From Candidatus Hodarchaeota archaeon (GTDB lineage: Archaea; Asgardarchaeota; Heimdallarchaeia; Hodarchaeales; Hodarchaeaceae), in the NCBI GenBank assembly GCA_016840035.1, contig JAEOTC010000251.1, forward strand, positions 1 to 15,634: 15,634 bases of DNA, written 5' to 3'. Numbering within the stretch: the stretch's first letter is position 1; every line of letters starts with the position of its first letter. Positions 2,960-15,634 of this stretch are shown in pieces. The notes under the pieces are model-generated. The model was not told where the DNA came from, ran no database searches, and worked only from the letters and a program-made list of their open reading frames with translations. Position numbers and translations under genes: made by a program.

Positions 2960-3232
2960 TTAATTTAGCTAAGACTCTATTTTATATAATTTTCTATAAA
3001 GTCGAAAAGCTTCATAGACAAGATTCAAGCTAGTTCTTGATTTTAGAGACAAGACTCACTTTCAGTTATCTTTCGTCACTGGCATTACCATAGATAGAAT
3101 GACTCCATAGGTTCCGTGAAGGTCAAGAAATGATCTATACTAAAAAGAACCAAGAAAAAACCACAAAAAAATGTAATTCAGTTATTAGCTTTTAAGGATT
3201 ATTTTTCTCTATTACTTGTCCTTAAGGATGTG

Positions 3233-3319
3233 TCCTGCAATACCCTGCAAACCAGTTTCTCATAAAACTTCTAGGGGAAAAACTGAAAGATTTAAAGCTT
3301 CATCCTGCAATACCCTGCA
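3233..3319 (+). repeat. Left 87-bp direct repeat (att-like), two TCCTGCAATACCCTGCA cores 70 bp apart
   Basis: Aligns without gaps to 13672-13758 with 8 mismatches. TGCA-ataccc-TGCA occurs at 3236-3249 and 3306-3319. Confidence 0.95.
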
Positions 3320-3523
3320 GATAAATAAGGTCTGATGAGAGGCGAACTCGATTGTTCGAATTTCACGCAGAATGAATGGTTAGGAAATCAACAAAAAACG
3401 TAATAGAACGATTTTTCAAACAAGATCTCTCTTGATAATAGTAGTGAAATTACCTATAATTTGTAGTGCTTTTGCTGTGAATGGTCTTCTTTGAAGGTAT
3501 GTGAATTTCATTTTGCATGTCAT

Positions 3524-3566
3524 TTGACACTCATTTTCGGGAAATGGGAGTCAAAGAGTATATAAG
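3524..3566 (+). promoter_or_regulatory. Imperfect inverted repeat plus archaeal TATA box for the 3587 ORF
   Basis: TTGACACTCATTTT-cgg-GAAATGGGAGTCAA (3524-3554, 11/14 paired) is followed by TATATAAG (3559-3566), which ends 20 nt before the ATG. This is consistent with a leaderless archaeal transcript. Confidence 0.55.
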
Positions 3567-3586
3567 ATAGTTAGCTGATGGATTAG

Positions 3587-3982
3587 ATGGTTACTACAAT
3601 GACCCAAGAACAAAACTTGATAAAGCAAAAATCTGAGAAATCAGAGTCAGTAGCACCAGCAATCCCCAACCCCCACAATGAGATCAAAGCAATCTTTGAT
3701 CCACCAACAGAATTACCAATCGTCTGCCTTGAGGCAAGTGAACGGTCATTCATATTAGACCGAAGATGGGCAGGTAAACGAACAGCTGAAATTGTCCAAA
3801 AGAAATTTGGTGGTTACGGTATCGTTACCAATGAACAGCTGAGCCAAGCAACCAAACAAGCGTGGGATGAACGAGTTGCTGTCTGCCAAGCATTGACTCA
3901 GGAGAATAAAACTCCTGTTGAGGCTGAACCAGAGTCAGGGAACCCTGAACCAACACAGAACACAGTGGAGAAAGCTATCTAG
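3587..3982 (+). CDS. Hypothetical protein, 131 aa
   Basis: Stand-alone ORF with a TATA box upstream and an oligo-T tract downstream. No family recognised. Confidence 0.75.
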   Translation: MVTTMTQEQNLIKQKSEKSESVAPAIPNPHNEIKAIFDPPTELPIVCLEASERSFILDRRWAGKRTAEIVQKKFGGYGIVTNEQLSQATKQAWDERVAVCQALTQENKTPVEAEPESGNPEPTQNTVEKAI

Positions 3983-3987
3983 CTTAG

Positions 3988-4009
3988 TTCTCTTCTCCCC
4001 TTTTTTTCC
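3988..4009 (+). terminator. Pyrimidine/oligo-T archaeal-type terminator
   Basis: TTCTCTTCTCCCCTTTTTTTCC directly after the stop codon, between convergent genes. Confidence 0.5.
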
Positions 4010-4047
4010 AGATGTTGTTTATTGTGCTTATTTATAGCCAAATTTAT

Positions 4048-4962
4048 TTAAAACAGAACCTGTTGGCTGATCCCATCGAGGACATTAAAACACATTCTGA
4101 TAAATTTATCCTTCTTTTCGTAATTAGTCACTATTGTACTCTTGAATGAGCTCATTAGTGTAGCATAGAATTTATCATTAACAACTCGTTTTTCAGTAGT
4201 CTTAGATCTGACTTTTTTTCGTTTCTGCTTTTTTTGAAGAGCTTTCATGAACTCTTGAGGAGAATAATATTCACCCTTTTTTTCAGGATAATGCTCAATA
4301 CCCTGTTCAGCATAAATCAACTTCAGAAATGTTCCCATCTTCTCTTTGGCGTCATCCTCATTATCCTCCGCGGAAATAAGATACTTTTGATTAATACTAC
4401 TTCCAAAAGACCTCATGGATGCAAGATCGCTTGATAAAAGCAAATAGGGAAAACTTTCAGGGTATTTTTTCAAACGAGTGAAGATGGAGTTCCAACGCAG
4501 AACAACCAAAACTTCTCTATTAAAGAACATCTTAAGGAACCATTCCCCTGTTTTTTGGCGATTTTTCTTGATTTGTTTAACAAGGAGTAATTTTTGTTCT
4601 TCATCGTGTTCGTCTCTACCCACTGGTTTCGACTTGTCCCCTCCTTCATAGAGATATTCAAACAAGAAGTCCACTACTGCCTTAAAATCAATAGTGCTTT
4701 TTCGTTCTCTAAGACTGAGATTATCTGGATCATTCTTGATCATTCCAGCCCCTCTATTATCCAAATACGACAATGCTTCAGAGATATTTCCCTCTGAACT
4801 TCCTTTGGGATTTTTTCGTATCATAAATTTTGAAATTTCGACATTTTTACACGGTTTTTTCCAACAACATCCGAGAATGCCCGCTACTACTTCTATTGAT
4901 GGTGTGTAACCTTTTCTTTTTTCTTCAAAGATTCTATCAATTTGGATTGTCATTTTTTTCAT
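4048..4962 (-). CDS. Hypothetical protein with a probable N-terminal winged-HTH, candidate repressor
   Basis: 304-aa ORF. The segment NVEISKF...SSEGNISEALSYLDNRGAGMIK resembles a wHTH recognition helix and wing. It is transcribed divergently from the replication operon. Confidence 0.6.
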   Translation of the reverse strand: MKKMTIQIDRIFEEKRKGYTPSIEVVAGILGCCWKKPCKNVEISKFMIRKNPKGSSEGNISEALSYLDNRGAGMIKNDPDNLSLRERKSTIDFKAVVDFLFEYLYEGGDKSKPVGRDEHDEEQKLLLVKQIKKNRQKTGEWFLKMFFNREVLVVLRWNSIFTRLKKYPESFPYLLLSSDLASMRSFGSSINQKYLISAEDNEDDAKEKMGTFLKLIYAEQGIEHYPEKKGEYYSPQEFMKALQKKQKRKKVRSKTTEKRVVNDKFYATLMSSFKSTIVTNYEKKDKFIRMCFNVLDGISQQVLF

Positions 4963-4997
4963 CTATATTGTTTTTTAAAACAATGATTTTTAAACCC

Positions 4998-5050
4998 TTC
5001 GGAAATTTGTTTATTCTCCGAATGCTTCGGAAATATACAGATCACCCGAA
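4998..5050. promoter_or_regulatory. Two tandem palindromic operators TTCGGA-N13-(T/C)CCGAA
   Basis: Sites at 4998-5022 and 5026-5050 with a 28-bp period, next to a TTTTTAAA TATA-like box (4987-4994) in the divergent intergenic region. Confidence 0.65.
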
Positions 5051-5110
5051 ACAATCAATGGAATCGTTATCCAAGAAGGTTTTTCACAATAACAAAGCAG
5101 AATAGAAATC

Positions 5111-5144
5111 TTTTAAAACATAGATATAACATGTTGTATTTGTG
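5111..5144 (+). promoter_or_regulatory. TATA-like box followed by a 26-bp imperfect palindrome
   Basis: TTTTAAAA (5111-5118), then CATAGATATAACATGTTGTATTTGTG (5119-5144, 10/13 pairs Watson-Crick). Confidence 0.5.
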
Positions 5145-5202
5145 AATCAAATTGACCCTACAACCAGAAAAAAAGAAGGCTGAAATCAATTATAACCTCA
5201 TA

Positions 5203-5337
5203 ATGGTTATATGTCAAAAATGCGGTTACAAATGGAATCCCCGCAGAAAAACAAGGCCAGTCAGGTGTCCCCATTGTCAGTGTCTTAAATGGGATAACTA
5301 TCAACCACCAAAAAAGCAGGGTGAAACAAGCCAATGA
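5203..5337 (+). CDS. Small zinc-ribbon protein (CxxC-x14-CxxC)
   Basis: MVICQKCGYKWNPRRKTRPVRCPHCQCLKWD is a motif typical of small zinc fingers of archaeal viruses and plasmids. ATG at 5203 is preferred over the TTG at 5152. Confidence 0.8.
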   Translation: MVICQKCGYKWNPRRKTRPVRCPHCQCLKWDNYQPPKKQGETSQ

Positions 5338-5474
5338 AAAATACTTCCTCTATCAATTCCCAAATTATCAATCAGTTCATCCGCACCCAAAAAACGAGTA
5401 ACGAGTACTTACGAAAAGAGCTTAATGCTTTGAAAGTGCGTGTAGAAGACCTAGAAAACTCTAAGCAGCATTAG
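5334..5474 (+). CDS. Small coiled-coil protein, 46 aa (below the ORF-track cutoff)
   Basis: MKNTSSINSQIINQFIRTQKTSNEYLRKELNALKVRVEDLENSKQH. It has an ATGA overlap with the zinc-ribbon stop, GGGTGA upstream and a heptad Leu/Val pattern. Confidence 0.6.
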   Translation: MKNTSSINSQIINQFIRTQKTSNEYLRKELNALKVRVEDLENSKQH

Positions 5475-5663
5475 AAACAAAAAAAGAGAGAATGGGCGAA
5501 TCATTCACCCCATGAATGTCCGCCTATATGAGAGTAGATCCAATGAAGAAAGACTACAAGCTAGCAGAGACTAGTCCCACTAATAAATCTTTTGATTCTA
5601 ATCCCGTCCCAAATATTGAGTTTTTCAAAAAGGGTTATCATTGGATAAAAGGAGGGATCTAAT

Positions 5664-6962
5664 ATGTCTAGCCCTGAAAAAAGAAAATTAGAGCTCCGAC
5701 CCGAAGACAAACAATTTCTGGCTTACCTGAAAAAACAAGGTCTTACCCCACAAGCCTCAGTAGTCTCCCACTGTCCCGATTGTGCTAATTATAACGAAGG
5801 GGGGTGTATCAAACACCACTGGTCTAGCATACCTCTAGAGAAAACGTCCTTTGTTTTTGATGAAAAATCCCCTGCCTACCATAAAAAACATCCAAGCCTT
5901 CACTGCCTTAACTGGCGAATTAAAACCCCCCAGAAGCCTTCTCGGGAAGAACAGATTAAGACGGAAGAGGAGGAGAAGAGAGAGGAACCTAATCTAAATG
6001 AGTATCATTGCCTGAAGAATTATTTTCCCCTTCTCAAAAATAAGGATGTTACAGAGAAGAAGAAACAATATGTTGCAGAGGATATTGTTTCTGCATTACA
6101 TCGTCAATACCCTGAAATAGACGAATTATCTATGTTAGAACAGATGGATAATTGGAACCAACAACTAAGGGATTCAGGCATATATGGGCTTTCACCTACG
6201 AGGAAGCACCGAGCGATAAAACGGGGGTTTGAGGAAAAACTCTCCTGCGAGCATTATAACGGTATTCTTCCTCTCCAAAAAGAATGTACTCTCTCTGATT
6301 GTCCTAAATATGATGGTACAATAGAACGGGAGAGAACTATAATTGAAAGGTTAGCAGATGAAATTACTCATATAAGACTTTTCAAGGGCGATAACACGGA
6401 GATGACCAAAGATGAATACACCATTTTTCTCCGAGATAAAAGTATTCTGTTATCACATAAGCAATTAATGAGACCAGCTCCTTTTATAGAAAAATATTTA
6501 CAGGTTTTTGGAGACTTACTTAAGATTAGTCCTAGTGAATGGTATATAATCTTCAATGAGATCATTAAACCAAAAATTACAGAGATCATAAAGGGAGAGA
6601 AAGTCGAAACAGAAGAATATTACCGAGAAATGTTTGTAGATTCTCTACATGAACGAGGAGTCGTTTATAGTTGGAATGAGGTTAATCGCAACTCTCCTGT
6701 TTATAATACCAAAGATTCAACCCTCTGGGTTCAAACTACAATTGTTGGGGAGCTAAAAGAGCAAATAGGACTAACTTGTAGCCTTAGAAAACTACGGTCG
6801 ATTCTAAACCCAGTTATAGCTCGTGGCGTGGAACGGAAACGGATTGGAGGAGGGGGAGCTCGGAGTTATTTTTGGATATTCAAGGGTGAAAAACTAGGAA
6901 TAGAACCTCCAATAGACAAACTAGACTCTTACATGAACAATAGCAAGGAAAGAAGAAAATGA
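5664..6962 (+). CDS. Putative replication initiator/primase-associated protein (Cys-rich N-terminus, PriCT-like helical domain, C-terminal wHTH-like region)
   Basis: GGAGG RBS at 5651. It contains CPDC-x7-C and MDNWNQQL...GLSPTRKHRAIKRG...LSCEH-x9-C-x4-CP, resembling primase C-terminal domains. It lies directly before an origin-like region and a helicase. No AEP catalytic or Walker A motif was seen. Confidence 0.55.
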   Translation: MSSPEKRKLELRPEDKQFLAYLKKQGLTPQASVVSHCPDCANYNEGGCIKHHWSSIPLEKTSFVFDEKSPAYHKKHPSLHCLNWRIKTPQKPSREEQIKTEEEEKREEPNLNEYHCLKNYFPLLKNKDVTEKKKQYVAEDIVSALHRQYPEIDELSMLEQMDNWNQQLRDSGIYGLSPTRKHRAIKRGFEEKLSCEHYNGILPLQKECTLSDCPKYDGTIERERTIIERLADEITHIRLFKGDNTEMTKDEYTIFLRDKSILLSHKQLMRPAPFIEKYLQVFGDLLKISPSEWYIIFNEIIKPKITEIIKGEKVETEEYYREMFVDSLHERGVVYSWNEVNRNSPVYNTKDSTLWVQTTIVGELKEQIGLTCSLRKLRSILNPVIARGVERKRIGGGGARSYFWIFKGEKLGIEPPIDKLDSYMNNSKERRK

Positions 6963-6967
6963 TTTTC

Positions 6968-7165
6968 AAATGTCCTATATATAGGGGAAAAACAAATGAT
7001 AGCGAGGAGTAGTAGTAGTGGTACTACTAGTACTACTACTATTCTATCTATTAAAAATATCATGGGACATGGGACACTAGAACTACTATCTTTTATCTAT
7101 GATGTTTTTTTATTTCCTAATAAAAGGAAATTTAATTTTGAAGTGTCCGATGAAGTGTCCTATAT
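6968..7165. other. Putative replication origin: inverted GGACA/TGTCC iterons around an AT-rich core, plus palindromes
   Basis: ATGGGAC x2 (7062-7075), TGAAGTGTCC x2 (7139-7148, 7151-7160), TGTCCTATAT x2 (6971, 7156), the CCTATATATAGG palindrome (6974-6985) and an AGTAGTAGTA/TACTACTACT stem (7008-7040). Confidence 0.65.
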
Positions 7166-7186
7166 CTTCTGGGAGGAGAGGTCAAA

Positions 7187-9316
7187 ATGACCACAATCAA
7201 AGTTATTGGTTTTGCAGGAACAGGAAAGACTTCTTATCTAGTGAATCGTGTTGATAAATTATTTGACAAAGGAGTTCAACCGTATGAGATTGGGTTTTAT
7301 ACTTTTACAAGAGCTGCAGCTAAGGAAGCGATTGATAGAGCGCTCTCCAAGTCTCCCCGGTTTCAAAGGCAGGATTTTGCTCATTTCAGGACGATTCATT
7401 CCGAAGCTGCACGGTTACTGGAATTGCGGGAGGAGGAAGTGTTTGTAACTGATGAGCGATTGAGAGAGTTCTGTAAGAGCATTGGTTACCGTTACCAGAG
7501 CAAGGTTGATCCAGATAATCCCTATGACTGGATAACCAGTCGTTATGAGTCCCCTCAAGTATTTTGGGGGATAAGATCTTTTGGGGTTCATAACCGATAT
7601 ACAGCTAGCGAAGCTTGGGGGCATTATCCAAACCTTCGTTATGTTAAAAGCCCGCGTATTTCAGAATACAAAGCCTTTTTAGATAAATATTCAGAGTATA
7701 AAAACAATAATGGCTTGTTTGACTATGATGACCTCCTAATTAACGTTCTTCAAGAGAAGAAGCGTCCTAATATTAAATATTTGATTGTTGATGAATTTCA
7801 AGACTTAAGCCCCCTGTTATATCAAATCTTTCTTCAATGGGAGGAATCAATGGAGGAAGTTATTATTGCTGGTGACCCCTATCAGGCAATTTACACGTTC
7901 ATGGGGGCGGAACCACGTTTTTTGCAAGATCATCCCTCTGATAAACGAGTCGTTCTTCCCCAAAGTCATAGACTCCCATCGAACATTTTGACTTTCGCAC
8001 AAAAATTCATCAATGATCCTGACTTTCAGACAGTAACTCCTACTCAACAAAAGGGGAAAGTAAAGAAGGAGTTTGGTAAGTCATTCGATTTAGGGGGTCA
8101 ATTGAGACAAGAAAACGGTTCAGTTTTTTTATTAACTCGAACCAACTATCATCTTAGACAATTAATGGAGGAATTGATTGCTGAGGGGATCCCTTTTTCA
8201 ACATACCGAGGTTACTCTCTGTGGGATCGGAAAACCTGTGTCCTTCACAATGCGCTACTTAATTTTTCTACCAATAAGCCTCTCTCTCTTTATGAAACAA
8301 AAGTACTTCTTGCTCATTTCCCTGTGAAAGGCTTTCTCGTTCATGGGGCTAAAGCCAAAATAAACAAGGCTATCAAAGAGAAGGCTTCCTGTGATCTTTG
8401 TTTCCCTGACTCACAAGAGGTTGATCCTGAGAAATTAAAAAAGGTCTTTTTACAAAACCCCACTTTCTCTCATCTAATCCATTCTTTAAAACTTGGTAAA
8501 TGGCATAAAACCGCTCTAAAAGAAAAAATAGACCGTTCTCGAGAGCGCATTGATTATCAGCAATTACTGATCAAGGTAGGTACGATCCACTCTGTCAAGG
8601 GTCGTGAAGCTGATACAGTCTTCTTATTCACTGATATAACCAAGCGAATCCGTCTCTGGGCGGATGTTAAAGAAGAACAGCGGATTTGGTTCGTAGGAAT
8701 GACTCGTGTGCGTCAAAAACTAGTAATAGTAGAGAATCGCTTTAATAAAAAAACTCGTAATAATTATCATATTCCAGTTCCCCCTCAGAAACCCTCTGAT
8801 TCCTCTGAGACTAGCCCAGAAGAGGTTAAGCCTCTAAAATTACCAACGATAAGTGAAATCCCCATAACCCCCGATTTTTGGAAAGACCACATTCTTAAAG
8901 TGGTTGAGGATAGTGAGAAGGGTATCAACAGAGAGGATTTGAGGGAAAAAATAAGGAAGTCAATAGGATTAGGTATTGGTTATTATAATCGTCTAGATAA
9001 ACTGATTGATGAATTACTCCAAGAGGGAATCCTCTTTGAACCTCCAACTGGATATATTCAACTATCTCCCGAATCTGACTTAGATTCCGAAACATTTGAT
9101 TATGACTCGCTTCCCGTACCAGAAGGATTCTTACATTGGATTGGTCGTCGTTCTACAAGACTTGGTGAGCCTGTATCTGTTGTATCCGCCCACTTATGGC
9201 TAGCAAAAAAATATCAATTATCCGATAATGATGTGGAGACAGTAATCAATGAATGCCTACGACAAGGACTAATTTTTGAACCACGTTTGAATCAATTACT
9301 TCCTGTGGGAGAGTAA
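7187..9316 (+). CDS. UvrD/Rep-family SF1 DNA helicase with two C-terminal winged-helix domains
   Basis: Motifs GFAGTGKTS, FTRAAAKEA, FRTIHS, DYDDLL, VDEFQD, AGDPYQAIYTFMGA, QSHRLP, TIHSVKGREAD and EEQRIWFVGMTR. GGAGG RBS upstream. The tail repeats are LLQEGILFEP and CLRQGLIFEP. Confidence 0.95.
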   Translation: MTTIKVIGFAGTGKTSYLVNRVDKLFDKGVQPYEIGFYTFTRAAAKEAIDRALSKSPRFQRQDFAHFRTIHSEAARLLELREEEVFVTDERLREFCKSIGYRYQSKVDPDNPYDWITSRYESPQVFWGIRSFGVHNRYTASEAWGHYPNLRYVKSPRISEYKAFLDKYSEYKNNNGLFDYDDLLINVLQEKKRPNIKYLIVDEFQDLSPLLYQIFLQWEESMEEVIIAGDPYQAIYTFMGAEPRFLQDHPSDKRVVLPQSHRLPSNILTFAQKFINDPDFQTVTPTQQKGKVKKEFGKSFDLGGQLRQENGSVFLLTRTNYHLRQLMEELIAEGIPFSTYRGYSLWDRKTCVLHNALLNFSTNKPLSLYETKVLLAHFPVKGFLVHGAKAKINKAIKEKASCDLCFPDSQEVDPEKLKKVFLQNPTFSHLIHSLKLGKWHKTALKEKIDRSRERIDYQQLLIKVGTIHSVKGREADTVFLFTDITKRIRLWADVKEEQRIWFVGMTRVRQKLVIVENRFNKKTRNNYHIPVPPQKPSDSSETSPEEVKPLKLPTISEIPITPDFWKDHILKVVEDSEKGINREDLREKIRKSIGLGIGYYNRLDKLIDELLQEGILFEPPTGYIQLSPESDLDSETFDYDSLPVPEGFLHWIGRRSTRLGEPVSVVSAHLWLAKKYQLSDNDVETVINECLRQGLIFEPRLNQLLPVGE

Positions 9317-9337
9317 TGAAAGGAGGAGCTTAGAAAA

Positions 9338-9600
9338 ATGAGAATGATTAAGGAGACCCATGAATTAAAATCATTAATTAAAGAAAAGATAAGAACAAAA
9401 AAGAATCAGAAACAGAAGAAATAATAAACCCACAAGATGAAAGACGACTAGAGATAATAAATGAAAAAGAGAAAAAAATAAGGAAAATACAAACAGAATC
9501 ATGGAAAGTAGGAGACACACCAAAAGAACAAGAACCATTCAAGAAAAAGATAATAGCACTCAAAAACGAAATAGAAGAAATAGAAAAACTTCAACGATGA
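9338..9600 (+). pseudogene. Frameshifted (or -1 recoded) small Lys/Glu-rich protein
   Basis: AGGAGG RBS and ATG 9338 give a 28-aa ORF (stop at 9424). It overlaps a start-less open -1 frame 9382-9600 (ESETEEIINPQDERRLEII...LKNEIEEIEKLQR). Confidence 0.45.
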
Positions 9601-10093
9601 AGTATTAAACGAATTAAAGGGATTAGGTCATTCAGATTTTAAAAATGACTTGGAGAGTAATTACTTACGTAATTATCACACAACGGACAGGTAAGCACTG
9701 GTTCAGCTGATTGAAATCGTTTTGTGATATTTGAGGCCAATGTGGCTAAATTTAAATCTGTGCGGGATTCTAAATTCTTTGTTAAAACTGTGGTAGATTT
9801 TCTTCAATTTATCATTAGTAATCAGCACTTCAGGATGAAAGACCATTATCTAGTGAATAAATAAGGGATAAAATACAATTTCTTGATGCGTTTGATAAGA
9901 GATTTAAATGCTCATTAGTGAAATCCGTCATTAATCTCCGTTCGTGCTCAGATCAATCTTCCTTTCTTAAAGGAATAAAAAGAATATTTGATCTTTGACT
10001 CTGTCAAAAAACTTAATATCCACTAACTCGGAGAGAAAATTGAATATTATAAACTAAAGAAGAGAAATTTAGTATAAAAATGAAGTGAATTAG

Positions 10094-10678
10094 ATGCAAG
10101 AGCTTTATTCTGCATTAAATGAGGAAGAAAGAGTTATCCTATTCGCTTTAGGGGCAGCAAATAATTCCCCAATAAACACTAAAACTAAGCTTCAGAAGCT
10201 CATTTTCTTAATCTCAAATGTGTTTCCAGATTATAAAGAGCTAATTGACTTTGAACCACATCATTTTGGGCCATATAGTGAGGATATAGTCGTAATTGTT
10301 GAGGATTTAATTCAGCTCGGACTAGTGGAAAGTAAAGGGAACCAATTTTTTCTAACTGAGAGAGGTGTAGATATATTTTCACAAATAAGACCCGCAGAAA
10401 GATTAATGCGGGTAATTGAGGATTTTAAAGAATTTCTAGACGATTTAACCAATGATGAAATTTTAACTTTCGTCTATGTTACCTATCCAGAATATATCGA
10501 AGAGTCAAAAAGATGGGATCAGTTACAAGGAAAGAGGGTAAATATAGCAATATCGTTATTGAAAAAACAGAAGATTAGCTTTGATAAAGCCGTAGAAATC
10601 GCAGGAAAATCCGCGAAAGACTTTGGAGCCATTTTAATTCAGAGGAAAATTAAGTGGAGACGAGAACCAACACCGTAA
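10094..10678 (+). CDS. Antitoxin-like protein: Panacea/SocA(YwgA)-like wHTH fused to a UPF0175-like HTH
   Basis: The N-terminal signature is TKLQKLIFL...FEPHHFGPYSEDI. The C-terminal AISLLKKQKISFDKAVEIAGKSAKDFGAILIQRKI matches the UPF0175 pattern. Confidence 0.75.
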   Translation: MQELYSALNEEERVILFALGAANNSPINTKTKLQKLIFLISNVFPDYKELIDFEPHHFGPYSEDIVVIVEDLIQLGLVESKGNQFFLTERGVDIFSQIRPAERLMRVIEDFKEFLDDLTNDEILTFVYVTYPEYIEESKRWDQLQGKRVNIAISLLKKQKISFDKAVEIAGKSAKDFGAILIQRKIKWRREPTP

Positions 10679-11238
10679 AGATTCTTGATAACACAGTCAT
10701 TTCCGCAAGTTTGAGAGAAATAGTGTCTATTAATCTACTCGAACGCTGTTCTCAAAGGTATGACATCGTCACTTCTCAAGAGGTTTATGAAGAAGCGAAA
10801 AGGGGATTTACAGACAAAACTCTTGTTGTTTTAAAGAAAATAGTAATGGTTGAAAATTTAAAGCTTCAAAAAGATTATAGCAATTTAATTGGATATTTAG
10901 AGGCTAGATATCCTTATCTTCATACAGGAGAACTATCATCTTTTCTTTTAGCTTTATTAAAATATGAATTAAATCAGTTAGCGTATTTCTATATTACTGA
11001 TGATAATCGGGCAAAAAAGGTGATCAGAGAAATCCATGAAGATAGTCTCTTTATTGAGCAATTAGGAATGCAATTCAGTAAAATTAATATTACAGGAACT
11101 ATTGGTTTAATACAAAGACTTAAAGAACATTGGTTGATAAAAGAAAGTGAAATTGAATCGATTATTCTTGATCTAGAAAAGAGTACATTTTATATTAATA
11201 GCGAAATAATTGTGCTACTAAGAGGTGATAGACCTTGA
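10654..11238 (+). CDS. PIN-domain ribonuclease (DUF3368/VapC-like)
   Basis: ILDNTVI, VYEE, LHTGELSS, ITDDNRAKK and ITGTIGLI supply the acidic PIN tetrad. The gene overlaps the antitoxin-like gene. Confidence 0.85.
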   Translation: METRTNTVKILDNTVISASLREIVSINLLERCSQRYDIVTSQEVYEEAKRGFTDKTLVVLKKIVMVENLKLQKDYSNLIGYLEARYPYLHTGELSSFLLALLKYELNQLAYFYITDDNRAKKVIREIHEDSLFIEQLGMQFSKINITGTIGLIQRLKEHWLIKESEIESIILDLEKSTFYINSEIIVLLRGDRP

Positions 11239-12263
11239 AACTTGATGTAAAATTAGAGGGAATTGATGATGAGCTGTTATATAAGAGAGTTTCACTTAAA
11301 TTAGGAAAAAAGAAGGTCATAACACCCACAAGAACCAATCCATCGACCGTAGTTAATTCAATTAATGAAGTTTACAATAGCTTTAAGACAACAACTATAG
11401 ATAATTGCTTAAATGATAATAAACGCGAAGCTCGTAAGAATAATGAAGTCAAGCGTAAATTAACAAGTGGTTTAAATTTTTATATAATCAGCTATACAAG
11501 CCCTGAAATTCCTAATGACAAACAAATAGAATTTCTTGCAGATATCCAGTATGGACATAGTGATGTAGTAATTACACCAACTTGGTCTCAAATTGTCAGA
11601 GATTCTAAGGATAGTCAGAAACTATTAGCTGAATATCGTAAATTGACTAACACTTTCTTAGATGTTGTTGAAACTCTCAATAATAAATCTATTATTGGCA
11701 TGATTTCCGCTAAACTTCCTAGAATTATACTAAAACCAGTAATAGATAATTATGTTAAAAGAAATATTACTTCATTTGTATTAGATTTCGATGGAAGATC
11801 AATTGATTCAGGAATGAGTTGGATAAGAAATTTAATGAGAATAGTGAAACAAGACACCGGTTTCGAGGAATCTTTTCTATATTCACTTAATCCTAGTCGC
11901 GGTAGGTTCACTAAAACTGCGAAACAAATCCTTGCTAAGGATTTTATCAATACAGCATTTGGTATGGATGTCGTTGGTTTATACCATATACCTTTAAGAG
12001 TCCATTTACCAAAAATGGACATACCTCCTAGAATTTTCATAAAAGAAAGCTATGGGTATGAAAGGATTCCTTCTAAACAATTAACCCAGAGAGGGATTAC
12101 TAATACCAAAGAATATAATCGAAATGAGCAATACAATGAGAAATTAACACTACAAACAAAACTAAAAGAAGAATCAACTATCGTAGACTATATTCAATCA
12201 AAATCCCAAGTAGATGAAAAGATAATTACTAAGATTAAAAAAGTTAAATCTGAAACAACATAA
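11235..12263 (+). CDS. Divergent tRNA-guanine transglycosylase (TGT)-like TIM-barrel protein, probably non-canonical
   Basis: TTGA overlap with the PIN stop and a GAGGTGA RBS. TGT-like landmarks appear in order: RVSLKLGKKKVITP, IQYGHSDVV, FGMDVVG and a C-terminal YN...E...L...L...DY helix. The Zn-binding Cys cluster is absent. Confidence 0.5.
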   Translation: MKLDVKLEGIDDELLYKRVSLKLGKKKVITPTRTNPSTVVNSINEVYNSFKTTTIDNCLNDNKREARKNNEVKRKLTSGLNFYIISYTSPEIPNDKQIEFLADIQYGHSDVVITPTWSQIVRDSKDSQKLLAEYRKLTNTFLDVVETLNNKSIIGMISAKLPRIILKPVIDNYVKRNITSFVLDFDGRSIDSGMSWIRNLMRIVKQDTGFEESFLYSLNPSRGRFTKTAKQILAKDFINTAFGMDVVGLYHIPLRVHLPKMDIPPRIFIKESYGYERIPSKQLTQRGITNTKEYNRNEQYNEKLTLQTKLKEESTIVDYIQSKSQVDEKIITKIKKVKSETT

Positions 12264-12660
12264 TTCACTGCTGAACATTTAATAGAGAGACGTATGGTCT
12301 ATTAAAAATTTTCTACATAATTCATACTGTTATACGATTAGTGAATTTGTGTATTAATTTCTTTTATTTCACTGAATTTAGCAGTTGATTAATTTTTGTT
12401 TGTTGAGAAAGACTTGAAAATAGCTCAATTTAAGGGAGAAATAATACCTACGATAATAGATTAACGACCTTGAGTGTGCAACCCTTAGATTTTTCATATT
12501 GTCCTTTCTAGCAATACGGTTCTTTTTCCAATTTTTAATTCTCTATCTCTTTGATCTTGAACCTTACTATTTTATGCCTCTCATACTGATCTTTCCTTAC
12601 TATCCATTTCTTCAGGAGCTGATTCATTGGTTGATGATTTATTGAAGTAATCGCATGAAA

Positions 12661-12688
12661 ACGTTACATGAATCAAATTATGTAATGT
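12661..12688. other. dif-like 11-6-11 tyrosine recombinase site
   Basis: ACGTTACATGA-ATCAAA-TTATGTAATGT. The arms are 9/11 inverted, and the right arm begins TTATGT like XerD-type arms. Confidence 0.4.
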
Positions 12689-13132
12689 AATATTGCCCTG
12701 AGAAATATTATGTAACGGAAATAAGTCTCTCAACTCACTATTTCTCTGTTCTATTAATTTCCACTCTAAGAAAACTAAATTTAGCCAATCCTCTAATAGA
12801 GGAGTTTATTCAAGCAAAAAAATCAGAGAAACGACCTAGTAATTAGAAATAGCAAAATATTTCCCTTAATGAGCCTTTCCTCCCCTTCAATACACTCGTG
12901 AATGAATAGTCATGTTCTGAGACTCGTTATGAGTCTCCTCACGCATGTAAAATACTCACGGATTCTTGCGGGCTAGAATAGCCCATAAATTAATTTTACC
13001 GTTATTTCCGTTTAATTTTCAAAAATAATCTCATTGAGTGAATCATACATTCTCATTTTTTCTTAAAGCGAGGGGGGTAGTTGGGGGGGTTTTATTTTCT
13101 CAAAGAATCAAGATTTGGAGGTTGATAGACAG

Positions 13133-13288
13133 ATGACTAAGAGATCCCCTATGTTTACATCAGAAAAGAATTTAGCTGTTGTGGATGTGAAAATCAAGCC
13201 TCTCAGTCTAGACCTTAAAGCTAGTGATATGAGTTTAAAGGTTAGTAAGAGAGGTGTAATTTTGCTTCTCAACCTTCGAGAGAGTTAG
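13133..13288 (+). CDS. Possible small protein, 51 aa
   Basis: MTKRSPMFTSEKNLAVVDVKIKPLSLDLKASDMSLKVSKRGVILLLNLRES, preceded by GGAGGT at 13117-13122. No other support. Confidence 0.3.
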   Translation: MTKRSPMFTSEKNLAVVDVKIKPLSLDLKASDMSLKVSKRGVILLLNLRES

Positions 13289-13524
13289 GATGCTCGTGAA
13301 ACATCCAATTTTTCACTTATCATGAGCTAAAAAAGTAAACCTGTCTTTTACAGTGAACTTTTTACGTAGAAAGAGTTGATTAATCACGTTATTTTGGATT
13401 ATACTTAATGAGAGGATGCTCAATGCAAAACAAGGAAAATTAACATCCTTATGGAGAGGAATGCAACATAAACCCCCTTAAAATCAAATCCAATTAACTT
13501 CCTTCAGTTTATCTAATCTTGTTG

Positions 13525-13567
13525 TGCATGAGTGTGCACACTAAGAAATAGCTGTTTTAATAAAGCT
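13525..13567 (+). repeat. Partial copy of the 70-bp unit (core plus Y arm)
   Basis: TGCA-tgagtg-TGCA, then cACTAAGAAATAGCTGTTTTAATAAAGCT, which matches 13759-13786 with one indel and two mismatches. Confidence 0.85.
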
Positions 13568-13671
13568 TATTACTAGGATGTTTGTTACTCATAATGTTGC
13601 CATAAAAGTTACAATATATATCGACATACAATATTTTTACTGACCTGACCTCACTTTTTTGCTTTCTTTTA

Positions 13672-13758
13672 TCCTGCAATGCCCTGCAAACCAGCTTCTC
13701 ATTAAGCTTATAGGGGAAAACCCGAAAGATTTAAAGCTTCATCCTGCAGTACCCTGCA
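13672..13758 (+). repeat. Right 87-bp direct repeat (att-like)
   Basis: 79/87 identical to 3233-3319, with cores at 13675-13688 and 13745-13758. Confidence 0.95.
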
Positions 13759-13828
13759 TACTAAGAATAGCTGTTCTAATAAAGCTATTAATTAAAACCT
13801 TTCAAGTTTAAGTATGCATAAGTGTGCA
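13745..13828 (+). repeat. Second 70-bp unit (Y), sharing a core with the right repeat
   Basis: A third core, TGCA-taagtg-TGCA at 13815-13828, lies exactly 70 bp after the 13745 core. The arm shares AGCT..TTCT.AT.AAGCT and AAAACC...AAG.TTTAA blocks with the X arm. Confidence 0.75.
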
Positions 13829-13866
13829 TGGTGATTACAAAGGTTGAAACTTCAAAATAAGAGTTT

Positions 13867-13886
13867 AGAAAAAAAAGGGGAAAGAA
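13867..13886 (-). terminator. Oligo-T terminator of the recombinase operon
   Basis: The minus strand reads TTCTTTCCCCTTTTTTTTCT just after the stop, the same C4-T7/8 pattern as at 3997-4007. Confidence 0.5.
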
Positions 13887-13894
13887 TAAACTAT

Positions 13895-14857
13895 TTAGGC
13901 TCTCGCTCTCGCAAAATGGTTACGATAATCGTCGAAGGTTTCTTTTTCAGTGATTCCTAGATAGATCTGAGTAGTCCGAATAGAACCATGACCCATCAAT
14001 CTAGAAATAGTTAAAATGTTGACCCCTTCTCTATAAAGATTTGTAGCAAATGTTCTGCGGAGGTCATGCGAGGTAAACCATTGATTTTCCTTTATTTCTT
14101 CTGTATTTCCATAGATTAACTCGCTCATGTGATTAAAGTATCGCTGGAGGTTTCTGATGTCAAACTTACCCCTGCTAGAAAAGAACACTAATTTATGATT
14201 GGTTTGTTTGTATTCTATCCGAGTTTGAAACCATTTTTCCCATTCCTGAATATGATGGTCAAGAATAGGGATTCTTCGATCTTTTTTCCGCTTTGAACCA
14301 CGAATCTTTAGTAATTTATTTGTTAAATCAACATCCTGTAGCGTAAGATTGATATACTCGCCAGCCCTAAGACCGTAATTTATTCCAACCCAAAATAACA
14401 TCTTAAGGATAGGGTCGTGTAATTTTCTTAAACCTGATTTTATCTCGATGTGAGTTAATGCTCTAGTGGTGTATTCCTCATTTTTAGGTAAGTCAGGATA
14501 GTACTTTTGAATTTTTTTTAGTTTTCTATCTGAAATAATCAATTGCCCGTCAGGACTCGTTTTCTCTTCACTATGTAACCATTCAATCCAAGTCCTTATA
14601 GACCAGTAATTGACCTTAATGGTATTGGAGGAACATGGTTTAGGTCGTCTGTCCATCATTTCTTGCACAAATCTGGCGAGGTCTGTGGCTTGAATGTCGG
14701 GAAGCGTCTTTCCGTGCTTCTCCATCTTTTCTAAAAACTTTTGTACGTTGTACCCGTAATTTCTTAACGTTTTATGACTTTTTTGAGAAGTTACTAACGG
14801 GTCATTCATAAATGCTACAATTAGTGGATTCAATTCCTTTTTTTGTTTAGGACTCAT
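13895..14857 (-). CDS. Tyrosine recombinase/integrase (Xer-like)
   Basis: Complete catalytic set: GLRAGE (R), GSKRKKDR (K), SHDLRR (HxxR), LMGH (H) and TTQIY (Y). N-terminal SAM-like region KTLRNY...SSNTIKV. Confidence 0.96.
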   Translation of the reverse strand: MSPKQKKELNPLIVAFMNDPLVTSQKSHKTLRNYGYNVQKFLEKMEKHGKTLPDIQATDLARFVQEMMDRRPKPCSSNTIKVNYWSIRTWIEWLHSEEKTSPDGQLIISDRKLKKIQKYYPDLPKNEEYTTRALTHIEIKSGLRKLHDPILKMLFWVGINYGLRAGEYINLTLQDVDLTNKLLKIRGSKRKKDRRIPILDHHIQEWEKWFQTRIEYKQTNHKLVFFSSRGKFDIRNLQRYFNHMSELIYGNTEEIKENQWFTSHDLRRTFATNLYREGVNILTISRLMGHGSIRTTQIYLGITEKETFDDYRNHFARARA

Positions 14858-15416: not shown

Positions 15417-15634
15417 TTCTTAACCGCTCCTTAGAATTTATTGGTCAAGCTTGACTGGACTTTTCACATTTATAAATGTATATTTTTTTGCTTTACATTA
15501 TGGGTATAACAAAAATTTTGCGAAATCAAAGTTTTGATAATTCCTTTTTTAACCATCGGAAATACAAAAAGAATCCACAAAGAAAGAAGGAGAAAAAAAG
15601 GAAAGGAGAGGCATTTTATCCTAGTTGGTAGAGT

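Follow-up and report, generated by a model that had tools for sequence, protein, structure and literature searches.

CopG of pMV158 binds two TGCA motifs within a 13-bp element, and its operator, together with the RHH box arrays, is one of the described systems closest to the locus analysed here (PMC3413123). Other comparable systems are the resolution sites cer and psi (PMC5357621) and the integrons, including the archaeal ones, in which a tyrosine recombinase lies beside a row of co-oriented units (PMC9668308). Archaeal integrated elements with tyrosine integrases, for which tandem integration is described, carry replication genes, a toxin-antitoxin pair and direct repeats (PMC8371274). The pdif modules of Acinetobacter (PMC6449649) and the IMEX att sites (PMC5357621) are multi-copy families of 28-bp sites of the 11-6-11 form with variable spacers, and in the att sites of IMEX one arm is degenerate.

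The locus lies in a window (the whole stretch of DNA that was analysed) of 15,634 nucleotides from a Candidatus Hodarchaeota archaeon. It resembles the CopG operator in its paired TGCA motifs about one turn apart and in the RHH-type gene within the same element; however, the gap is 6 bp and there is no 13-bp element, the pairs are repeated at 70 bp, the array is placed after a recombinase gene and not at the RHH promoter, and the number of units varies. With cer and psi it shares an 84-87-bp two-subsite unit beside a recombinase, two direct copies of which bracket a replicon as in a cointegrate. In the array, however, both subsites share one grammar, the units are stacked, and no full-length dyad-arm crossover core was identified. 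The TnpI IRS and the Sin/beta res sites are further resolution sites of the core-plus-accessory kind. The likeness to integrons ends with the recombinase and its row of units, as an IntI domain, an attC-like fold and genes within the units are all absent. Similarly, the element shares the gene content and direct repeats of the archaeal integrated elements but has no tRNA target, its integrase is unsplit, and its 87-bp repeat is internal to a larger element. The comparison with pdif and IMEX concerns another site, at 15499, and not the TGCA cores; the 15499 site has the features named above, including the degenerate arm, but is chromosomal, archaeal and genus-restricted, and its module encodes its own Xer-like enzyme. 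Judged by these analogies, the locus would behave as an array of CopG-type boxes, or as a resolution site with two subsites, within an integrative element located on a pdif-like site.

The six TGCA-N6-TGCA cores of an earlier note on this DNA (A at 3236, B at 3306, C at 13525, D at 13675, E at 13745 and F at 13815) were all confirmed, while shuffled sequence gave a mean of 0.09 and a maximum of 1. Its two spacer classes were also recovered, and the array, said to end about 65 bp from the recombinase stop, has its last core ending 66 bp away. The three 70-bp intervals that it had called consecutive do exist, but only two of them are consecutive, and the third (3236-3306) sits 10 kb apart. The two arm types, X and Y, are related as proposed, though weakly (p about 0.004-0.03 against genomic 56-mers); their homology carries an internal offset of about 6 bp, and yet they are equal in length. 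The features of the window are collected in the table.

Table. Features of the window and dif-like palindromes in G000 (an empty cell means that nothing is given)
Feature	Position	Strand	Remarks
X1 unit: core A (3236-3249), 56-bp arm, core B (3306-3319)	3233..3319	+	cores A and B identical over 17 bp
10.4-kb segment between the X repeats	3320..13671		ORFs, helicase, UPF0175/DUF3368 pair, non-coding mosaic
Non-coding block P/Q	13148..13524		element-family DNA; adjoins the array in both sister alleles
Core C, G-type boxes	13525..13538	+	motif
Y', degenerate copy of Y	13539..13613	+	copy span 13539-13597; absent from L098 and L236
Z segment	13614..13671	+	conserved beside core D in L236
X2 unit: core D (13675-13688), 56-bp arm, core E (13745-13758)	13672..13758	+	left half in L236 at 94%
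Y unit: core E, 56-bp arm, core F (13815-13828)	13745..13828	+	L098 ortholog with equal 70-bp spacing
Xer-like tyrosine recombinase, 320 aa	13895..14857	-	R164, K189, H264, R267, H290 and Y299 all present
Partner protein, 189 aa	14847..15416	-	directly upstream of the recombinase; arrangement conserved in the family
Element end, dif-like 11-6-11 site, 28 bp	15499..15526	-	outer arm matches genus-wide GTCGTCAAA palindromes; inner arm element-specific
Dif-like palindromes in G000	C82:265, C114:48874, C176:139, C179:1749, C228:24590		
Further dif-like palindromes in G000	C87:24433, C104:40011, C25:10822, C8:5487, C47:6357		

The two X units form an 87-bp direct repeat (79/87 identical), which holds cores A and B in one copy and D and E in the other, and the homology starts 3 bp before core A or D and stops at the final base of core B or E. 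As the copies differ at 8 positions and their longest identical run is 25 bp, a misassembly is unlikely. The segment between them contains ORFs of 131, 304 and 342 aa and a 432-aa ORF without a family match, and it further encodes a UvrD helicase with an MCM winged helix and the UPF0175/DUF3368 pair. In genome G008, the 131- and 304-aa genes are present 3-4.5 kb downstream of a related module of RHH and recombinase genes, and they are, therefore, assigned to the same element family. The intervals from C to F, on the other hand, measure 70-150 bp and hold no credible gene; Y' may contain a decayed core near 13598-13613, a weak match.

Each core consists of a 7-bp box that ends in TGCA and is repeated head to tail with a 10-bp period. 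TGCA is its own reverse complement, and a 6-bp spacer separates inverted elements in all nine cores known from the window and its alleles. Beyond TGCA, the symmetry is of the direct kind: the three bases ahead of box 1 agree with those ahead of box 2 in at least two positions for 8/9 cores (the sole exception being the hybrid core of the allele L098), whereas dyad symmetry beyond TGCA was observed in one core of the nine. The two spacer classes are thus two classes of 7-bp box. Conserved dyad arms of about 11 bp were absent around the TGCA cores, the conservation past TGCA being direct and not inverted. Such direct box repeats fit tandem binding by an RHH or winged-helix protein better than they fit the arms of a recombinase site. 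Between orthologous units, none of the 40 TGCA positions differ, against 24/172 positions of spacer and arm (Fisher p=0.005), a comparison that rests on two independent, partial metagenome alleles (L098 and L236). Further, four units are exactly 70 bp, and the arm length is fixed between alleles. The repeats are real and under constraint, and they look like protein-binding sites inside a mobile element.

The alleles also differ in the units that they carry. In L098, where the element is 92.7% identical, a single Y unit is present with its 70-bp spacing kept, and 220 bp are missing relative to the window. Its left core is composed of the left flank of C, the right half of the E spacer and the right flank of E, which places the break inside the 6-bp spacer; beyond Y, the contig runs on into the homolog of 13524-13330. 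The contig L236, to which a homolog of the 131-aa gene led, contains core D, Z and part of X but not C-Y'. Past Z, it continues into 13512-13338, and then 3371 and the 131-aa gene follow, inverted with respect to the window. A common non-coding block follows Y in L098 and X-Z in L236. From these two alleles and the boundaries of X1 and X2, it follows that the unit content varies and that three precise joints fall at cores. The joints that map inside the spacer, or are compatible with it, are the one L098 hybrid core and the two X boundaries; repeat slippage would give an equal pattern, and the loss in L236 is imprecise. Judging from the alleles, gene-free short units are gained, lost and swapped between strains. 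What stands of the role that the earlier note had given to the cores is that they are constrained and act as joints where the units differ between natural alleles.

The element has one mapped chromosomal end, and by alignment, this is a dif-like 28-bp site and not a TGCA core. The window and three sister copies (93-96% identity) align to about 15526, after which four unrelated flanks follow. Sister elements in the 93-96% range are those of ERZ25074855, SRR30965933 and Ga0114923, the SRR30965933 strain being 96% identical. The site lies 1.7 kb from the TGCA array, and the TGCA cores obtain strongly negative scores on the dif-like site model. In the own genome, 10 dif-like palindromes were counted at a spacer of 6 against 0-2 at other lengths, and palindromes with this 6-bp gap are present in 18/21 congeners against 0/61 other genomes of the class. 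Of the 13 family members inspected, 11 have the outer arm at a distance of about 100 bp upstream of their RHH gene. In L028, the module of RHH and recombinase genes lies between dif-like sites at 109-136 and 1839-1866, the second of which lies 49 bp after the stop; no second site closing the module was found in the window or in L098. Neither the right end of the window element nor an empty chromosomal allele of the window flank or the FtsX gene was found. Congeners have dif-like sites whose spacers match, but the flanks of these are unrelated, and they are, therefore, not simple empty alleles. As the modules sit on one arm of such a site and share spacers with these congener sites, the RHH and recombinase family may be the catalyst of the cassette system built on such sites, or a passenger of it. 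A palindrome at 15445-15456, upstream of the RHH gene, contains half of a dif-like arm and is a possible autoregulatory site.

The 320-aa recombinase has no IntI insertion, and an N-terminal arm-binding domain is not apparent in it. The distance from the catalytic R to H is 100 aa, as compared with about 132 in IntI4 and about 93 in XerA, and the integron integrase model gives 63.9 bits against a cut-off of 265. A homolog at 46% identity comes from a Hodarchaeales genome, and relatives down to about 30% identity have a gene of 150-200 aa directly upstream. In the window, this neighbour is the 189-aa protein, which probably consists of an RHH N-terminus, a long helix and a winged-helix-like C-terminus. 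Its matches are all weak and mutually consistent; the top match in the atlas is a CopG-family cluster (0.82, to be taken as a lead only), its relatives match RHH-type Pfam families weakly, and no fold match was obtained at E<=0.001. The promoter region of its gene (15417-15634) contains no TGCA, so that no TGCA pair is present there. In alignment A1 (columns 260-290), most relatives of the recombinase carry a basic insertion of 15-30 aa before H-x-x-R, which the window enzyme and P0011 lack. A second recombinase has left a 71-bp remnant of its 5' end at 12769-12839 (92% to G002), in an orientation opposite to the neighbouring G002-like blocks; a different fragment of this second recombinase gene is present in L098, and L099 has one from a further relative.

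Known copies of the array come from a single genome and two short contigs. In the own assembly of 4.3 Mb, the 30 single matches to TGCA-N6-TGCA are at the background level (gauged by the similar counts for other spacer lengths out of codon phase), and they are clustered only on the window contig. The four-box pattern occurs in 5/399 other genomes of the phylum, where it looks like coding repeats or chance, the coding repeats being leucine-rich-repeat-like with a 72-bp period; no second non-coding array was found in these 399, and the array is seen only here among 400 phylum genomes. The earlier note had proposed a test for co-location with homologous recombinases, and no such co-location was seen: 13 relatives (28-58% identity) are without such an array. 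Among these thirteen more distant members, none has a paired dyad array within 1.5 kb of the recombinase gene, and the array is, therefore, a subfamily feature at most. Pattern matches on viral contigs are mostly 10-bp tandem repeats, none resembling X or Y. There was no plasmid match to the array, no viral relatives of the 432-, 131- and 189-aa proteins were found, and no description of this array was found in the literature searched.

To account for these findings, we propose, with about even confidence for and against, that the phased boxes, probably bound by the CopG-like 189-aa protein, are in-register exchange points and that the X repeat fused the 10.4-kb replicon to the recombinase module. 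The array would be the cis-acting control region of a Hodarchaeales mobile element with an RHH-type gene and an Xer-like recombinase, each core offering two 7-bp boxes one helical turn apart and the core pairs being spaced at 70 bp. A DNA-binding protein encoded by the element, most likely the 189-aa protein, would bind the boxes, and the bound boxes may form a looped complex of the res-like or operator-like kind. Because the cores repeat in register, exchanges between them would add, remove or swap gene-free units of 70-150 bp; the variation between alleles is seen, and the catalyst of the exchange may be homology-driven. A single exchange in the 87-bp X repeat would have fused a 10.4-kb replicon circle to the recombinase module. 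In L236, the X-bearing block lies beside the 131-aa gene in inverted form, and an excised circle, once closed, would give that neighbourhood, with the block immediately upstream of the gene. Against this proposal count the absence of a TGCA pair from the promoter region of the 189-aa gene, where the palindrome is closer to the dif-like arm, the weak RHH fold assignment, the right end that was not found and the small number of sister alleles, two in all and both partial. A head-to-head fusion of two related elements would give a map identical to that of the circle model.

A more tentative explanation is that the adjacent recombinase uses the cores as true 11-6-11 crossover sites and would excise, insert and swap both the units and the 10.4-kb replicon, while the host XerA, encoded on contig C174, would handle the dif-like end; it takes in the stacking idea of the earlier note in a weaker form. 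The 6-bp gap and the in-spacer break in L098 fit a tyrosine-recombinase crossover equally well. The spacer is of the length found in Xer/dif (PMC8371274), the array lies 66-90 bp from the stop, a place at which L028 shows a full dif-like site (49 bp past the stop), and 3/3 of the precisely mapped joints are compatible with an exchange in the spacer. Further, a host enzyme could serve the dif-like sites, since they occur in 18/21 congeners and the 189-aa gene was detected in only 1 of these with the query used. Against it, conservation reaches no further than 4 bp per arm, and the wider symmetry is of the direct and not of the inverted kind; the thirteen relatives have no paired dyad array near the gene, and 11/13 family members have the dif-like outer arm upstream. 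Moreover, the L098 joint combines two non-identical spacers in mid-spacer. Such a joint is unusual for tyrosine recombinases. This explanation nevertheless keeps a minor share of our confidence because the 6-bp gap, the gene-adjacent position and the L098 joint all fit it. Somewhat more doubtful is a nested second system, in which the Xer-like enzyme and its RHH-winged-helix partner would recombine minimal TGCA-N6-TGCA cores, so as to add, remove and swap the gene-free 70-bp units, and would capture whole replicons, while the module would travel as a cassette between the dif-like sites of the host.

The idea that the earlier note had advanced, namely that every 70-bp unit terminates a gene-carrying element and that such elements stack at each other's ends as in an integron, is now improbable. 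Two unit types do abut through one shared core, and one X-to-X interval carries genes. However, the units from C to F are gene-free and internal, a common non-coding block follows Y in one allele and X-Z in the other, no second array exists in the 399 genomes, and the mapped end is another, dif-like site. The integron-like part of the claim also falls, as the IntI domain and the attC-like fold are absent and no gene cassettes lie between the sites. A shade less probable is that the units are regulated promoters, with a BRE-TATA-like motif in X (about 13722-13736, + strand) between two operators firing antisense into the recombinase or towards the 131-aa gene. Both copies of X have the motif, at 15 bp upstream of their cores B and E, but Y lacks it at the equivalent place, and a conserved TATA-like motif is present at the 131-aa gene itself. 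A neutral origin, by slippage and tandem duplication of non-coding junk, would suit the surrounding mosaic of decayed fragments but is the least credible of all, given the box invariance (p=0.005) and a length that is fixed despite the offset internal alignments.

A few other candidates were rejected. A structured RNA or attC finds no favour in the folding z-scores, which are -1.2 to 0 for X and about -2.5 for Y, the latter being due to local hairpins, which in L098 have lost pairing in their arms with no compensating change. A tRNA-targeted att repeat was set aside as there is no tRNA or Rfam match, and a CRISPR mini-array as the cores are variable and 14-17 bp long, the arms are duplicated and related, and no Rfam CRISPR repeat is present. 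A serine recombinase was considered because the L098 joint is mid-spacer; the assembly (87% complete) has only a short resolvase fragment at a contig edge, and the cores are not alike in their central dinucleotides.

Little is known about how DNA moves and is reshuffled in Hodarchaeales, which are close archaeal relatives of eukaryotes. The locus offers a small testable set: a single recombinase with a single partner protein, candidate sites of two types, and three alleles from nature. If the recombinase acts on the TGCA cores, the site would be unusually short; if it acts on the dif-like site, it would be a candidate catalyst for a genus-wide 28-bp cassette system. The array itself is rare and carries no genes.

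Several smaller features were observed in the surrounding DNA. An imperfect inverted repeat (13/20; 3361-3380 / 13340-13359, and L236:276-296) is present where L236 inverts relative to the window and is a possible inversion joint. A motif with two CCTTA boxes, spaced by about 33 bp, has copies at 3190-3232 and 13437-13490 that are inverted and diverged; the left copy abuts core A, and similar boxes are repeated at L053:14880-14953. Directly after core B, a hairpin (3323-3365) is part-hammerhead-like, without the GAAA motif and with no Rfam match at the gathering score. At 2749-2957 there is a 3' fragment of a phospholipase-D-like gene, of which longer copies are found in G005 and G019, while G002 has nearly the same fragment alone. 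An imperfect repeat (12623-12740, L053:9458-9494 and 12653-12777) brackets the G002 module, and its copy in the window is an apparent hybrid of both ends.
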